Positions 6,010 to 16,066 of a stretch of DNA of 64,000 nt are shown here, piece by piece. The translations under genes were made by a program, and so were the position numbers. Origin of the DNA: Patescibacteria group bacterium (lineage in GTDB: Bacteria > Patescibacteriota > UBA1384 > CAJBMM01). Each line of letters starts with the position of its first letter. Within the stretch, counting starts at the first letter, position 1. The stretch is from the NCBI GenBank assembly GCA_041660565.1, contig JBAZWC010000002.1, forward strand, positions 20,315-84,314. Direction: 5' to 3'. The notes beneath the pieces are model-generated. The model ran no database searches, had not been told where the DNA came from, and was given only the letters and a program-made list of their open reading frames with translations.

Positions 6010-6153
6010 GCACGAAATACGAAACAAATTCAAAATTAAAAAAGTTTAAAAATTTCAAATTTCAAATTTCAAATTTTCATTATCGCCAAACAAAACGTAT
6101 TGGATTCTGCCATCCACAATGACACCGCACACTTTTTAATCTAGAATAAAGTT

Positions 6154-7122
6154 ATGCCCAGAATTCGTCAAAATATTGTTACCGGGGAATGGGTGGTGGT
6201 GGCACCTGAACGCGCCAAACGCCCCGAAGAATTTAATAAACGGCCTTTTTCGGCGGCCCTGCTGCACGACCAAGAATGTTTCTTTTGTGTTGGCGGTTCG
6301 GCGTGGAACGAACGACTAGACCGCGTTGGTAGTAAAAATATTTACGTTATTCCAAATAAATTCCCCGCTTTTACCAAAGAAACTAATATTGAAGAGACCG
6401 GACACGATTTTTTCTCCGACAACTCGGCCGAAGGTGTTCACGAGGTGATTATATTATCCAATCCAAATGATGCACTGAATAAAATATCGTCTAAAAATTT
6501 AGCGGATTTATTACAGGTGATGCGTGATCGCACCCGATTTTATCAACAAGACGTCAGTATTCGATCGTTTACCCCTATTTACAATCACGGCTTGGGTTCC
6601 GGCGCTTCGGTAAATCATCCTCACGCTCAATTTTTTGGCAATAATTTAGTGCCACCCAGACTACTCAATGAATTTATGGGCTCGGAACAGTACTTTCACC
6701 ATCAGCGCAACTGCGTTTTTTGTGATTTATTAACTTTTGAGCTTAAAGAAAATTCGCGTGTTGTTTTTAAGAATGACGGCGCGGTGGCCGTGACCGCATA
6801 CGCACCCAGATTTCCGTTTGAAACTTGGATTATCCCTACCGACCACTTGTCCACTTTTGCCGGAGCGTCTGACAAAACTTTGAAACAAGTTGCCGAAGCC
6901 TTGCGATCAATTATGAAACAGTTTGACCAAAAATTAAGTAATCCACCCCTAAACTGGTTTATCCACACTTCACGAAGTTTTGATTATCACCAAAAAATGA
7001 CCTACCACTGGCATTTGGAAATTACACCACGGCTTTCCACCTACGGTGGTTACGAACTAGCCACCGATATGACTATCGAAACAGTAATGCCCGAAATCGC
7101 CGCCAGATTCCTTAAATCATAA
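6154..7122 (+). CDS. galactose-1-phosphate uridylyltransferase family (GalT-like HIT nucleotidyltransferase)
   Basis: Zinc-knuckle CFFC near the N-terminus and the HIT-like active site NHPHAQ (the GalT H-P-H motif). Confidence 0.6.
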   Translation: MPRIRQNIVTGEWVVVAPERAKRPEEFNKRPFSAALLHDQECFFCVGGSAWNERLDRVGSKNIYVIPNKFPAFTKETNIEETGHDFFSDNSAEGVHEVIILSNPNDALNKISSKNLADLLQVMRDRTRFYQQDVSIRSFTPIYNHGLGSGASVNHPHAQFFGNNLVPPRLLNEFMGSEQYFHHQRNCVFCDLLTFELKENSRVVFKNDGAVAVTAYAPRFPFETWIIPTDHLSTFAGASDKTLKQVAEALRSIMKQFDQKLSNPPLNWFIHTSRSFDYHQKMTYHWHLEITPRLSTYGGYELATDMTIETVMPEIAARFLKS

Positions 7123-9708: not shown

Positions 9709-11601
9709 ATGGGTAAAATAATCGGTATCGATTTAGGTACTACCAACTCGGTTGGCGCCGTAATGGAAGCTGGCAGCGCCAAAGTAATCCCCACCGCCGA
9801 GGGCGGTAACATTGTGCCATCTATTGTTGCTATCAACAAAAATAATGAGCGACTGGTAGGGCAAATTGCTAAGCGCCAAGCGGTCACTAATCCCGCCAAC
9901 ACTATCTTTTCCATTAAACGTTTTATCGGACGCAAATTTGACGATAAAGACGTTCAAGACGATCTAAAACATATTCCTTATAAAGCGGTTAAAGCAGCCA
10001 ACGGCTCTGTTTCGGTGATGTTAAATGATAAAGAGTACACCCCGCAAGAAATTTCCTCGTTTATTTTAGCCAAAATTAAGCAAGATGCTGAAAGCTATTT
10101 GGGCGAACCGGTAACTGATGCGGTTATCACCGTGCCAGCTTATTTTGACGATGCCGAACGCCAAGCCACCAAAGACGCCGGCAAAATTGCCGGGCTGAAC
10201 GTGCAACGTATCATTAATGAACCAACTGCTGCCGCACTGGCTTACGGCTTGGAAAAACAGAAAAATGAAAAAGTGGCGGTTTTTGATTTAGGCGGTGGTA
10301 CGTTTGATATTACCGTGCTGGAACTATCCGCTGCCGATGGCGAATCAAGTTTTGAGGTAATTGCCACCAACGGTGATACGCATTTGGGTGGAGACGACTT
10401 TGACCAAAAATTGATGCAAGAATTACTTGAAATCTTTAAAAAGGATCAGGGAATTGATCTATCAAAAGACATCATGGCATTGCAACGTATTAAAGAAGCG
10501 GCCGAAAAAGCCAAAATTGAGCTTTCTAACACTTTGGAAACCGAAGTTAACTTACCGTTTATCACCGCAGACGCTAACGGGCCAAAACATTTGGTCACCA
10601 AAATTACTCGTGCGCGCTTGGAACAACTAACCGAAGATTTGGTTCAGCGCACCTTAGAGCCCTGCAAAAAAGCGCTAGCCGACTCAAAACTAAACCCATC
10701 CGATGTTAACGAAGTCATTTTAGTTGGTGGGCAAACCCGTATGCCACGAGTAATTGCGGCGGTCAAAGATTTCTTTGGCAAAGAACCAAACAAAAGCGTA
10801 AATCCGGATGAAGCAGTAGCAATTGGCGCCGCTATTCAAGGTGGAGTGTTGGGCGGCGATGTTAAAGACGTATTGCTGTTAGATGTTACCCCGCTGTCTT
10901 TGGGATTAGAAACTTTGGGTGGAGTAATGACCAGATTAATTGAGCGCAACACTACCATCCCGACATCAAAATCACAGGTGTTTTCTACTGCTAGCGATAA
11001 TCAACCGGCTGTGGAAATCCACGTCTTACAAGGTGAGCGCGATATGGCCGCGGACAACAAAACCTTAGGCCAGTTTGTACTGGATGGCATCCCACCAGCC
11101 CCCAGAGGCGTGCCACAGGTTGAAGTTACGTTTGACATAGATGCTAATGGTATTGTTCACGTTTCAGCCAAAGACAAGGCCACCGGTAAAGAACAAAAAA
11201 TCACCATCACTTCTTCTTCCGGATTATCCGACGAAGAAATTAGTAAGATGCAAAAAGACGCCGAAGCACACGCGGACGAAGATAAGAAGAAACGCGAACT
11301 TGTGGAAAGCAAGAATATCGCCGATAATATGATATATACGGCCGAAAAAACATTGCGCGATTTAGGCGAAAAAGCCGATCCGGAATTAAAACGAGCGGTT
11401 GAAGACGCGGTGCTGGCAGTCAAAAACACCCTAACATCTAACGATGCAGCGCAAATTGCCAAAGCAACCGAAGAGTTAAGTAATCACCTATCCAAACTGG
11501 GACAAGCGGCTTATCAAGAACCAGAAAAATCTGAAACAAAAACCGACGAGGCGGGGGAGAAGCCAAAGGATGACAAAGAGGGGCAGGATCAATCTAAATA
11601 G
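9709..11601 (+). CDS. dnaK: molecular chaperone DnaK (Hsp70)
   Basis: [18 protein letters not shown] and the rest of the Hsp70 sequence throughout. RBS AGGAGG. Confidence 0.97.
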
Positions 11602-12667: not shown

Positions 12668-13279
12668 GTGGCTAAAAATTATTATGAAATTTTAGGCGTT
12701 TCAAAATCTGCCTCGGCGGATGAAATTAAGCGTGCATATCGTAAATTAGCCCACGAGCATCACCCAGACAAGGGCGGTGGCGCCGCAGCCGAAGCCAAAT
12801 TCAAAGAAATTAACGAAGCTTATCAAGTTTTATCTAACCCGCAAAAACGCCAATCTTACGACACCTTTGGCACCGCCGATGGTGCGCAATTTGGTGGAGC
12901 AAACCCCGGCGGCTTCGGTGGATTTGGCAATATGGGCGGATTCGATTTTGGATCTGGCGGAGTACACTTTGGTGGCGGTTTGGGAGATCTGTTTGAGGGG
13001 ATTTTTGGTCAAACCATGGCGCAAGTCCAAGTTGAAGTTGAAATATCAATTACCCAAGCGGTTTTAGGCGATACCTTGCATTTACAAGTTGAGAACAAAA
13101 AAGTTGACCTAGCAATACCGGCTGGCACACAGGACGGCCATTCATTCCGTCTACGTGGGCAGGGGCGGGCGTTTCGTGGCGGGGTTGGTGATTTGATTGT
13201 CTCGGTTCGCATACGCGTGCCAAGACATCTTAGTCGCGAACAACGCGAACTATACGAAAAACTAAAAAATTTGGAATAA
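12668..13279 (+). CDS. J-domain co-chaperone (DnaJ-like; J domain + Gly/Phe-rich region + C-terminal domain, no CxxCxGxG zinc finger)
   Basis: GTG start. YYEILGV...HPDK J-domain signature and a [17 protein letters not shown] region. The absence of a zinc-finger motif was checked in the translation. Confidence 0.75.
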
Positions 13280-13323
13280 AGAAATAGCCGCCCACCATCT
13301 TTCGGGGGCGACTATTTGGCACA

Positions 13324-13533
13324 TCAGCGGCAGGTAAGCCACCGAAGAAGAGCTCGTGGCCCTTTGGCCGGGCTAGGAGGCGGGCCACAGCAAGGCCGAA
13401 GCAGGGAAACAGCGTACTGAAGTGCCTTGTCTTCAGTCATCTCGTGTTCCTTGGCGTATTCGGCCAGAATTCGGTGCGACCTTGCTGTCAGGCTGAGTCG
13501 GCTTTTTTCTGGCACCGACGCGGGCTTCGTCAT
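13324..13533 (-). CDS. ribbon-helix-helix (CopG/antitoxin-like) small protein, possibly decayed (low-complexity C-terminus), in a ~300-bp GC-rich islet
   Basis: N-terminal KSRLSLTARSHRILAEYAKEHEMTEDKALQYAV fits an RHH beta-strand plus two helices. The tail PCCGPPPSPAKGPRALL looks like read-through. GC-rich. Confidence 0.35.
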   Translation of the reverse strand: MTKPASVPEKSRLSLTARSHRILAEYAKEHEMTEDKALQYAVSLLRPCCGPPPSPAKGPRALLRWLTCR

Positions 13534-13597
13534 GACCGCATCTTTTCCCGCCTGATCGATTCGAGCAATGCGGCCAGCACTGATTTCCGCGAGCGCT

Positions 13598-13680
13598 TTG
13601 TCATTCCGGATTTAATCCGGAATCTATATAAAAAAAATTTCCATCATTTCAAATTTCAAATTTCAAATTGTAAATTATCT
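13598..13680. repeat. CCGGAATGACA-family hairpin (TGTCATTCCGGATTTAATCCGGAAT) followed by a (TTTCAAA)n heptamer tract
   Basis: Short palindromic element related to the family A TIR. The tttcaaatttcaaatttcaaattg tract recurs at about 6040, 20250, 50075 and 54265. Confidence 0.5.
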
Positions 13681-13782
13681 ACATTTAGTCAAAACCGTGC
13701 TTAAAAGAGAACCGTCCCCTATTTCTGCCTTTCCATCCTCCATTCTCTATCCTCTATCCTCCAAATGTGCTATAATAATAAT

Positions 13783-15150
13783 ATGAAATTAAAACTGGTA
13801 TATGCCCCAAGCCCAATCTTAAATCGCAAAGCCATCAGTGTGCCAAAAATCACGCCAGATTTGGTGAAGCTAGCCAACAATATGCTGGAAACAATGGTAG
13901 ATGGCAATGGCATCGGCCTAGCCGCTCCCCAAGTTAATCAGAATGTTCGTTTGATCGTTGTGGGAAATTCACCCGAAAAAGAGGGTGAAGATTACATCCC
14001 AACCACCATTTTATTCAATCCTAAAATCACCAAATTCTCGTCGGAAAAAGAGTTCGCCACCGAAGGCTGCTTGTCTATTCCGGGAATTACCGGCGTGGTT
14101 GAACGATCAAAGTCGATTACGGTTGAATTTCTTGATGTTGATGGAAATAAGCAAACGCTAAACGCAAGCGACTTGTATGCGCGCGTAATTCAACACGAGG
14201 TTGACCACTTGGAAGGCGTACTGTTCACTGATCGTCTAAGACACTATTCGATCGTCTTTTACGGCACCTCCGATTTTGCCGTACCGGCGCTAGAAGAGTT
14301 GCTTCTGCACCCACAGTTTGAACTTAAAGCGATTGTAACCGAAACCGATAAACCGGCTGGCCGCGGACATCAGCTAACCGCGTCACCGGTGAAAAAATTC
14401 GCCCTTGATAATAAAATCAAAGTGCTGCAGCCAATGTCGCTTAATTGCCAACACAAAAACGCCACCAAAGCCCAGTCAGCCACAAATGCTTTTCAAGACT
14501 TAAGCAAAATTAAGCCTGATTTTCAGATTGTGGCCAGTTATGGAAAAATCATCCCGCAAGAATTTTTGGATTTAGCAAAACTGATCAACCTAAATATTCA
14601 CCCATCACTATTGCCAAAATATCGTGGCGCCAGCCCAATTCAATCTGCCATTTTGCACGGTGAAACTCAAACCGGCGTGGCAGTGATGGCAATGGCGGCG
14701 GAAATGGACGCCGGCCCGGTAGTAACAATGTATCGCCACAATATCGACCCGGACGAAAATGCAGATCAGTTATCAAAACGGTTGGCTGAGTCTGGCGCAG
14801 CGCAACTGATTATGACCTTAGAGGAAATGTTAAGCAATAAATCGTCACTGTATGAGCAAGACCACACCAAAGCCACTTTCACCAAAAAGTTTGAAAGCGT
14901 GGACGGATTAATTGATTGGACCAAATCTCCAATAGATTTGCATAACTTTGTCCGCGCGCTAACCTCTAAACCGGGCGCGTTCACCCAGATTGATGGCCAA
15001 AACGTCAAAATACTGAAAACCCATTTGACAGAGGGTAAATTGACCATTGATTTGGTGCAATTACCCGGTAAAAAACCATTTTCAATGTCGGATTTGAAAA
15101 ATGGATATCCAAAAATGTATCAAGAATTATTAAATCAATCCAATAAGTAA
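13783..15150 (+). CDS. def-fmt: fused peptide deformylase (N-terminal ~160 aa) - methionyl-tRNA formyltransferase (C-terminal ~295 aa)
   Basis: One uninterrupted ORF. Def motifs GIGLAAPQV, EGCLS and QHEVDHLEG are followed without a stop by Fmt motifs IVFYGTSDFAVPALEEL and HPSLLPKYRGASPIQ. TATAAT lies 7 nt before the ATG at 13783 (leaderless?). Confidence 0.75.
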   Translation: MKLKLVYAPSPILNRKAISVPKITPDLVKLANNMLETMVDGNGIGLAAPQVNQNVRLIVVGNSPEKEGEDYIPTTILFNPKITKFSSEKEFATEGCLSIPGITGVVERSKSITVEFLDVDGNKQTLNASDLYARVIQHEVDHLEGVLFTDRLRHYSIVFYGTSDFAVPALEELLLHPQFELKAIVTETDKPAGRGHQLTASPVKKFALDNKIKVLQPMSLNCQHKNATKAQSATNAFQDLSKIKPDFQIVASYGKIIPQEFLDLAKLINLNIHPSLLPKYRGASPIQSAILHGETQTGVAVMAMAAEMDAGPVVTMYRHNIDPDENADQLSKRLAESGAAQLIMTLEEMLSNKSSLYEQDHTKATFTKKFESVDGLIDWTKSPIDLHNFVRALTSKPGAFTQIDGQNVKILKTHLTEGKLTIDLVQLPGKKPFSMSDLKNGYPKMYQELLNQSNK

Positions 15151-15209: not shown

Positions 15210-15653
15210 ATGTTACGCATCCGCCTAGCCCGACGTGGCCAAAAACATCAGCCGACTTATCGCTTAGTAGTTGCTGAGCACACCCGACCAACCACCGGTA
15301 AGTTTGTCGAGATTTTGGGTCACTACATTCCGACCACAAAACCAAAAGTGTTCGAAGTTAAAAAAGACCGCGTTTTGTACTGGATTGAGCGCGGCGCTCA
15401 GCCAACCGATACTGTGCACAATTTGTTAGTTGATGCCGGTGTGTTGACAGACAAGCGCGACATTCGCTACGCTAAAGAAAAGATCGAGGAGGACAAAGCA
15501 GAGAAGGTCGAAAAAGTCGAAGACGCCGCTAAAGATACAGTGCCCGAGGAAGTTCCAGAAGAATCAGTTGATAATCCTGTTGAAGACGCCACCGAAGAAA
15601 AAGTTGAAGAAGCTACCGAAGAAGTAGTTGAACCCGACGCCAATCAGTCATAA
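15210..15653 (+). CDS. rpsP: 30S ribosomal protein S16 with an acidic C-terminal extension
   Basis: MLRIRLARRGQKHQPTYRLVVAE is the canonical S16 N-terminus. RBS AAGGAAAAG. Confidence 0.85.
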   Translation: MLRIRLARRGQKHQPTYRLVVAEHTRPTTGKFVEILGHYIPTTKPKVFEVKKDRVLYWIERGAQPTDTVHNLLVDAGVLTDKRDIRYAKEKIEEDKAEKVEKVEDAAKDTVPEEVPEESVDNPVEDATEEKVEEATEEVVEPDANQS

Positions 15654-15676: not shown

Positions 15677-16066
15677 ATGACGCAAATGTCAGACCAAGAG
15701 TTCGTCCAAACGATCGTTAAGGCGATTGTGGATCACCCCGAGGATGTCAAAACCGAGCGTGTGGTAGACGACAAAGGAATTCTAATCTCGCTAACGGTAA
15801 ACGAAGAGGATATGGGAAAAATAATTGGTAAAGGCGGACGAACCGTCAACTCAATCCGCAAATTATTGCATGTTCTAGGTGCCAAAACCGACGAACGTAT
15901 CAATCTAAAAATTTACGAGCCAGATGGCCAAGAGGTTTCCACCCCAACCGAAGACTCAGTAGTTGAAGAACCAGAGAAAAAAGAGGAAGTCGTTGAAGAA
16001 AGCGCTCCAGAAAAACCCAAAGATGAGCCGAAACTAGACGATGTCCCAACCGACGTATTAGTCTAA
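15677..16066 (+). CDS. KH-domain RNA-binding protein (YlqC family), acidic tail
   Basis: GKIIGKGGRTVNSIRKL KH motif. Canonical position between rpsP and trmD. Confidence 0.7.
   Translation: MTQMSDQEFVQTIVKAIVDHPEDVKTERVVDDKGILISLTVNEEDMGKIIGKGGRTVNSIRKLLHVLGAKTDERINLKIYEPDGQEVSTPTEDSVVEEPEKKEEVVEESAPEKPKDEPKLDDVPTDVLV

Follow-up and report, generated by a model that had tools for sequence, protein, structure and literature searches.

Peptide deformylase (PDF, encoded by def) and methionyl-tRNA formyltransferase (encoded by fmt) usually come from adjacent genes. A reading frame that appears to contain both raises the question of whether it is a real gene with two functions or two ordinary genes that were joined by an error. 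The frame considered here lies in a 64,000-nucleotide stretch of DNA from a Patescibacteria group bacterium (assembly GCA_041660565.1, contig JBAZWC010000002.1, positions 20,315 to 84,314 of the forward strand), which we call the window. We put the probability at roughly 85% that this is a genuine and selectively maintained bifunctional gene of the Patescibacteria, or candidate phyla radiation (CPR). It would join a Def core to a complete Fmt with almost no linker, and the two reactions would be independent of each other.

One reading frame with two complete active sites

On the plus strand, 13765-15150 is a single uninterrupted open reading frame (ORF), with 461 codons if counted from the first ATG. 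The ATG at 13783 is a better start than the ATG at 13765, because close homologues begin with MKL and because the promoter geometry described below points there. From that start, which is probably leaderless, the coding sequence (13783-15150) has 455 codons and a TAA stop codon at 15148-15150. Residues 3-154 are the catalytic core of a type-1B-like peptide deformylase without the C-terminal helix (13789-14244; Pep_deformylase, PF01327, E = 1e-47, 161.9 bits against a cutoff of 22.8). Residues 156-455 are Fmt, with the formyltransferase domain at 159-343 (14257-14811; Formyl_trans_N, PF00551, E = 6e-36) and the C-terminal domain matched at 373-417 (Formyl_trans_C, PF02911, E = 2e-13, 50.6 bits against a cutoff of 21.1).

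Both halves also score above the curated cutoffs of NCBIfam: 239 bits against 201.5 for fmt (TIGR00460), and, for the deformylase half, 143.4 bits against 103.95 for def (TIGR00079) and 159.7 bits against 125 for NF001159. In the same scan, the models for ArnA, PurN, PurU, and other paralogous formyltransferases scored far under their own cutoffs. In sequence comparisons to the PDB, PDF structures align with residues 3-154 (E as low as 2e-29) and Fmt structures with residues 156-420 (E as low as 8e-46), and no PDB chain matches both halves. The closest solved relatives of the Def half are PDFs from cyanobacteria, plastids, and Plasmodium, along with a cyanophage PDF of 154 amino acids (3uwa, matched over residues 13-151 with E = 1e-26). 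The initial annotation had reported that def and fmt motifs run through one ORF without a stop codon, and all of the motifs that it quoted are where it placed them. With an uninterrupted frame, both halves above the curated family cutoffs, and an architecture that is kept in relatives, the fusion is real.

To examine the active sites, we used E. coli Def and Fmt sequences that are identical to PDB chains 3k6l/1bs4 and 1fmt/2fmt, respectively. We aligned these with 120 family members and scored invariance in a 68-sequence alignment (A1). The three Def motifs are GIGLAAPQ at residues 43-50 (13909-13932), in which G45 and Q50 are invariant; EGCLS at 94-98 (14062-14076), which includes the metal ligand Cys96 and in which E94, C96, and S98 are invariant; and HEVDH at 138-142 (14194-14208), within QHEVDHLEG at 137-145. 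In the last motif, the metal ligands His138 and His142 and the catalytic Glu139 are all invariant.

The Fmt half has the catalytic Asn271-Ile-His273 in NIHPSLLPKYRG (14593-14601), corresponding to N108 and H110 of E. coli Fmt, and the catalytic Asp309 (14707-14709), corresponding to D146. Its invariant columns are N271, H273, S275, L277, P278, R281, and G282, most of which lie in HPSLLPKYRG (273-282), along with D309 and G311. The Fmt-specific insertion loop 1 is present as well: TETDKPAGRGHQLTASPVK aligns to TQPDRPAGRGKKLMPSPVK (E. coli residues ~34-49, including PDRPAGRG), and K190, G193, and R194 are conserved in at least 90% of the family. In the 2fmt complex, this loop reads the acceptor end of the initiator tRNA. 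Overall, the Def motifs, the Fmt triad, the SLLP..RG motif of the folate site, and the KPAGRG of loop 1 match the E. coli enzymes column for column. The initial annotation had called for a check that both active sites are intact, and they are. Since the catalytic columns are invariant across 68 homologues, both halves are under purifying selection for catalysis.

The two halves meet at H152-Y-S-I-V156 (14236-14250), in the sequence FTDRLRHYS|IVFYGTSDF (residues 146-163). Only about three residues separate the last Def helix (148-151) from the first strand of Fmt (β1, IVFYGT), which comes directly after Y-S. The last residues of the Def half, LFTDRLRH, align with LFMDYLSP at the end of the 147-residue core of E. 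coli Def (1def), and the C-terminal helix of E. coli Def (residues 147-168) has no counterpart. The end of the HExDH motif and the phenylalanine of β1 are 16 residues apart in the window's subclade (P0001-P0018), where the junction sequence LFTDRL..Y..VFYGTS is conserved, and 25 apart in most of the other fusions (range 16-32). If E. coli Def and Fmt were joined end to end, this distance would be 40.

An AlphaFold2 model that was built with the 68-sequence alignment is confident and compact, with a mean predicted local confidence (pLDDT) of 96.1, a predicted TM score of 0.91, no disordered segments, and a pLDDT of ~98 at the junction. It has a helix at 130-143 (with HExxH), the short helix at 148-151, and the strand at 155-161. 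The two enzymes are thus predicted to form one rigid body rather than beads on a string. When the model was compared to the PDB with Foldseek, it matched Fmt structures (2fmt, 4iqf, 5uai, and others) with target-normalized TM scores of 0.80-0.84, and nothing in the PDB spanned both halves (query-normalized TM ≤ 0.58).

The fusion is also conserved in relatives. Among the best 120 matching clusters from a database of 5.8 billion proteins, all contain Def and the N-terminal domain of Fmt, and all but one contain the C-terminal domain of Fmt as well. These clusters, mostly from Patescibacteria/CPR, are 36-59% identical to our protein and 420-493 amino acids long, and the underlying assemblies are those of NCBI, JGI, ENA, and Logan; because only the best 120 matches were examined, there are at least 120 fused clusters. 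The few members with names are from Berkelbacteria, Saccharimonadales, Portnoybacteria, and "Patescibacteria group". When 1.84 billion representatives at 50% identity were scanned exhaustively with HMMER, at least 43 proteins matched in one stretch over the junction. Among the top 150, fusions account for about 50, and beyond these are ordinary Fmt proteins of ~300 amino acids. The identical protein is present in both NCBI and JGI on a 374-kb contig. A survey of relatives, which the initial annotation had suggested, thus finds that the fusion is widespread in CPR lineages.

A search with the Def half by itself returned only free PDFs of 153-197 amino acids and missed P0001, a fusion that is 100% identical, so it is unusable for estimating what fraction of the family is fused (its word-index prefilter favors short proteins).

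Relatives at 48-57% identity keep the gene order priA, glycosyltransferase, def-fmt, rpsP, khpA, trmD, and uvrB, and the window agrees with them in the downstream part of this neighborhood. There is no second def or fmt in the 64-kb window, nor in the ±6-kb flanks of the gene in four relatives (L081 and L083-L085).

A putative leaderless promoter

Just upstream of the gene is an extended -10 element, TGcTATAAT (13768-13776, plus strand, with the TG at 13768-13769 and TATAAT at 13771-13776), without a recognizable -35 element. It is followed by aataat and then by the ATG at 13783. The initial annotation gave the gap between TATAAT and the ATG as 7 nt; it is actually 6 nt, and the A of the ATG is the seventh base after the hexamer. 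There is no Shine-Dalgarno-like sequence in the 20 nt upstream of the ATG, and a search of the 500 nt upstream of def-fmt against Rfam gave no match. A generic scan for sigma-70 promoters did not report this promoter, because the -35 element is absent.

This geometry, TGnTAnnnT-N6-ATG, is kept at five of five loci, namely the window and the four relatives L081, L083, L084, and L085. In the relatives, the sequences are TGgTATGAT-tagggc-ATG, TGcTATAAT-cagagc-ATG, TGaTAAGAT-tacagc-ATG, and TGtTATATT-aatatt-ATG. The upstream DNA of the four relatives is otherwise unalignable, and different neighboring genes lie behind it. That the transcript might be leaderless had been suggested from the TATAAT box in the window, and the exact spacing and its conservation in four independent relatives support this. 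Transcription would start at the A of the ATG at 13783 and would give a leaderless and monocistronic mRNA.

In leaderless genes, such as those of mycobacteria, a -10 element of the TANNNT type sets the start of transcription on the start codon. By this placement rule, def-fmt shares with the mycobacterial genes both the -10 element just upstream of the start codon and the lack of a Shine-Dalgarno sequence, whereas the leaderless start of def-fmt is predicted from sequence geometry and conservation. We found no report of leaderless genes in CPR bacteria in the literature that we searched.

Similar geometry occurs at other genes in the window. At the genuine starts 6154, 13783, and 33136, the sequence is TAnAAT-N6-ATG (3 cases versus ~0.1 expected, P ~ 2e-4), which suggests that leaderless transcripts are recurrent in this genome. 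The gene that starts at 33136 is hisS (33136-34419, plus strand), with TGtTATAAT-N6-ATG at 33121-33138; its match to tRNA-synt_His in Pfam begins at residue 9. The mechanical list of ORFs begins hisS 153 nt earlier, at the TTG at 32983, where it would overlap a divergent gene (32340-33080). The gene at 6154-7122 (plus strand) has TAGAAT-N6-ATG at 6142-6156, and its product starts with MPRIRQNIVTGEWVVVAPERAKRPE. It may be galT-like. A third extended -10 element, TGaTATAAT at 32304-32312 on the minus strand, has a 22-nt leader with a Shine-Dalgarno sequence (AGGAAG) and an ATG at 32281, so leadered and leaderless genes would coexist. All three copies of TGNTATAAT in the window are just upstream of genes and on the correct strand.

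Directly upstream of the def-fmt promoter is a stretch of 31% GC with two tandem arrays of heptamers, ATTTCAA x 3.4 (13646-13669) and ATCCTCT x 3.9 (13735-13761). Farther upstream, within an unusually long gap of ~500 nt between dnaJ and def-fmt, 13290-13600 is an island of 59% GC in a genome of 44% GC. It contains an ORF of 69 codons on the minus strand (13324-13533) without a match in Pfam and a terminator-like hairpin (13490-13504). The island may be what is left of foreign or decayed DNA. Upstream of def-fmt, the relatives have priA and the glycosyltransferase gene instead.

What the fusion would do, and other explanations

We expect that the fusion protein has both activities, in keeping with the published rescue of E. 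coli Δdef-fmt by the Exiguobacterium fusion (PMC12690207). The Fmt half would formylate Met-tRNAfMet with 10-formyltetrahydrofolate, and the Def half would remove the formyl group from nascent chains. The initial annotation proposed that the fusion physically couples these reactions. This seems right as to obligate stoichiometry and co-inheritance, but there is no chemical basis for channeling: fMet-tRNA, the product of Fmt, is not a substrate of Def, and the formate that is released by Def is not the formyl donor of Fmt. The gain from the fusion would instead be obligatory 1:1 expression and inheritance together. The two enzymes would be made in equal amounts because translation initiates once for both, on a leaderless mRNA that lacks an internal ribosome-binding site from which a second cistron could be translated.

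The order of the domains may matter as well. In classical E. coli genetics, def can be deleted only if fmt is inactive, and Fmt alone, which would give formylation without deformylation, would be the harmful state. With Def at the N terminus, a nonsense mutation, a frameshift, or premature termination would leave Def alone or nothing, and never Fmt alone. Def first and Fmt second could thus be a genetic safeguard.

Several points weigh against a genuine and maintained bifunctional gene. This selective rationale is only what we infer from the published genetics of def and fmt. The Def half is missing the ribosome-anchor helix of the E. coli type. The C-terminal tRNA-binding domain of Fmt (residues 373-455; 14899-15147) is ~24 residues shorter than in E. 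coli, and the match to PF02911 spans only positions 5-49 of the 100 in the profile. The window has no more copies of TGNTATAAT than chance predicts (3 versus 3.6 expected), so only its position and its conservation across species argue that it functions as a promoter.

For the two shortened regions, unfused genes serve as controls. In unfused CPR def genes, the tail after HExxH has a median of 22.5 residues, and some have only 11, versus 30 in other phyla. PDFs of 153-158 amino acids exist as free-standing proteins. As for Fmt, the C-terminal region is just as short in five of 15 unfused CPR fmt genes (171-181 amino acids from the NxH motif to the stop codon). These controls show that neither the short Def tail nor the short C-terminal domain of Fmt is specific to the fusion. 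Since unfused CPR PDFs and other free PDFs are short-tailed too, the loss of the Def helix is independent of the fusion, and PDFs as a family are not defined by the C-terminal docking helix.

The missing helix raises the possibility of a role at the ribosome. In a preprint (bioRxiv 10.1101/312850) that cites Bingel-Erlenmeyer 2008, helix 147-168 is described as the primary ribosome anchor of E. coli PDF, which it docks between L22 and L32. The most ambitious proposal is that the fusion is the sole source of Def and Fmt in a large share of the Patescibacteria, that the Fmt half has replaced the lost Def helix in docking the enzyme on the unusually reduced CPR ribosome, and that synthesis of the protein feeds back on the supply of fMet-tRNA, as it may do because leaderless initiation depends on the initiator tRNA at the 5' AUG. 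If so, formylation and deformylation would be organized at the ribosome. We consider this proposal to be unlikely. A little less likely still is the narrower idea that Fmt replaces the lost helix as the docking module, or that the fusion places Fmt at the ribosome. The segment that anchors E. coli PDF is exactly the one that is replaced by Fmt, the two domains are predicted to pack rigidly, and it is established from the Fmt-tRNA complex (2fmt) that the C-terminal domain of Fmt is an RNA-binding module. But the short tails of unfused CPR PDFs and the free-standing PDFs of 153-158 amino acids, which do without the helix and without Fmt, argue against a replacement.

We think it very improbable that one half serves as an inactive scaffold while another gene elsewhere in the genome supplies the real activity. 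The truncated C-terminal domain of Fmt and the missing anchor helix of Def might hint at decay, and all of the Exiguobacterium genomes that have a def-fmt fusion also have a second complete PDF (PMC12690207). However, the catalytic and substrate-binding residues that we examined in both halves are invariant in 68 diverged homologues, which is a signature of selection on activity; both halves exceed equivalog-level cutoffs; and neither the window nor the flanks of the gene in four relatives contain a second copy. The short Def tails and short C-terminal domains are also found in unfused CPR genes, which must work.

It is just as improbable that the ORF yields two proteins, with Fmt also being freed by proteolysis or by internal initiation at the in-frame TTG at codon 143. 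This TTG does have a Shine-Dalgarno-like GAGG 8 nt upstream, Fmt would gain an extension of 13 residues, and a long-linker fusion from Firmicutes (L004, discussed below) retains GTG and CAGGAG near the old fmt start. In the window, though, both TTG and GAGG are by-products of the HEVDHL codons, and none of four close relatives has a start codon and a Shine-Dalgarno sequence at this position, so we rejected initiation at this codon. As for proteolysis, there is no cleavable linker, and the junction is predicted to be structured.

Finally, we regard it as next to impossible that an indel or a base error erased the stop codon of def in an assembly of two ordinary genes: the contig does derive from a metagenome-assembled genome, and fmt usually lies next to def, often in frame with one stop codon between them, so that a single error could mimic a fusion, but conservation (rather than the reads) excludes this, given the identical architecture in at least 120 clusters of independent assemblies down to 36% identity, the ~50 fused representatives at 50% identity, the junction sequence that is conserved in the subclade, and the ~24 residues of Def tail and Fmt leader that are gone (16 versus 40), which no single error would yield.

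Origin, known relatives, and neighboring genes

A bifunctional gene of this kind seems easy to reach from an ordinary def-fmt pair. We surveyed 80 loci (L001-L080) from species-representative genomes, 58 of which have a recognizable def and fmt. Only two of the 80 are true single-ORF fusions: L004 from Fermentithermobacillaceae and L016 from Nomurabacteria. In 20 of 58 unfused pairs, def and fmt share a reading frame and only one stop codon keeps them apart (TAA in 9, TAG in 6, and TGA in 5), although the tblastn ranking may have enriched for such pairs. In several of these, the start codon of fmt comes immediately after the stop codon (for example, VPN*MKIIFFGS), so a single substitution would fuse the pair. 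We also considered whether these in-frame stop codons might be recoded or read through to give fusions, and rejected this, as all three stop codons are used and several of them abut the fmt start.

We propose that the common def-fmt pair lost the stop codon of def, which gave a fusion, and that the C-terminal tail of Def and the N-terminal leader of Fmt were later deleted in this lineage, so that the enzymes came to pack as a rigid body. In a second class of fusions (P0259, P0265, P0270, P0285, and P0308), the domains lie 25-70 residues apart and the C-terminal domain is full-length, which is as expected for recent stop-loss events. L004 (4001-5227, from a Fermentithermobacillaceae metagenome-assembled genome) is a Firmicutes def-fmt fusion with a long acidic linker that is rich in glutamate (ISEIKKDEEEESQEGVEGAREIRAVFMGSPDF). 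A GTG with CAGGAG in front of it is still near the former start of fmt. Stop loss in L004 thus looks recent, and free Fmt could still be made from this gene.

In a neighbor-joining tree, which is crude and has biased sampling because the fused set was picked by similarity to a fused query, a single large CPR clade holds most of the fusions, and the window's group with the 16-residue junction is monophyletic inside it. A few fusions are interspersed among unfused CPR pairs, and L004 groups with unfused Firmicutes. On this pattern, the fusion probably arose several times. One protein of 457 amino acids (P0261) was considered as a fusion in the reverse order and rejected: it has two Formyl_trans_N domains and one C-terminal domain, and is apparently an internal duplication of the N-terminal domain within the Fmt family rather than a fusion to Def.

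This kind of fusion is already known. A def-fmt fusion in Exiguobacterium (Bacillales) has been published (Mol Biol Evol 2025, PMC12690207) as an unusual case that was found in 4 of 5,042 reference genomes, and the fusion from E. alkaliphilum was tested and rescues E. coli Δdef-fmt. The window gene resembles it in being a single ORF with Def at the N terminus and Fmt at the C terminus, and the catalytic residues of both enzymes are intact. The Exiguobacterium fusion is from another phylum and each of those genomes has a second PDF, whereas the fusion in Patescibacteria is widespread across CPR lineages. The text of PMC12690207 does not mention CPR or Patescibacteria, and we found no description of a CPR def-fmt fusion in the literature that we searched. 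Because L004, the only Firmicutes fusion that we examined, branches with unfused Firmicutes, our tree suggests that the fusions in Firmicutes and in CPR have independent origins.

Compared to the separate genes of most bacteria, as in E. coli, the gene order, the enzymes, and the catalytic residues are alike. The window gene lacks the stop codon, the intergenic spacer, the fmt start codon, Def helix 147-168, and the first ~5 residues of Fmt, and its Fmt C-terminal domain is shorter, as described above. The boundary where the Def half stops is that of the 1-147 core of E. coli PDF (1def), one of the minimal PDFs without the C-terminal helix, as is the cyanophage PDF (3uwa). Those are free-standing, whereas the Def half in the window runs straight into a second enzyme of 300 residues. 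What is new is the breadth of the fusion in Patescibacteria, the compacted junction that lacks the helix for anchoring to the ribosome, the predicted rigid packing of the two enzymes, and the conserved putative leaderless promoter.

All of the source names that we recovered for fused proteins are "methionyl-tRNA formyltransferase" only, including both the NCBI and the JGI names for the identical sequence. A reconstruction that relies on names could thus mistakenly count CPR genomes as lacking PDF, which is the product of an essential gene and a target of antibiotics. The 20 in-frame pairs among 58 show how readily a fusion can arise. In a large uncultivated radiation, the fusion has become fixed and was later compacted, apparently on more than one occasion. 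As to mechanism, the sole well-characterized ribosome anchor of PDF has been swapped for a 33-kDa enzyme, which makes this family a natural test case for how PDF finds nascent chains. None of these findings overturns the current understanding.

Several of the neighboring proteins have unusual lengths. The DnaJ homologue (12668-13279, plus strand), downstream of dnaK (9709-11601), has only 203 amino acids, with a J domain and a stretch rich in glycine and phenylalanine. It has no zinc-finger region, and of the DnaJ C-terminal domain it keeps no more than the final ~70 positions. Downstream of def-fmt, ribosomal protein S16 (15210-15653, plus strand) has 147 amino acids, and its Pfam domain covers only residues 8-66. 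The KhpA-like KH protein (15677-16066, plus strand) has 129 amino acids, with its domain at residues 7-79. Both have a long acidic C-terminal extension, and the S16 and KhpA-like proteins of relatives are similarly long (146-157 and 130-148 amino acids, respectively).

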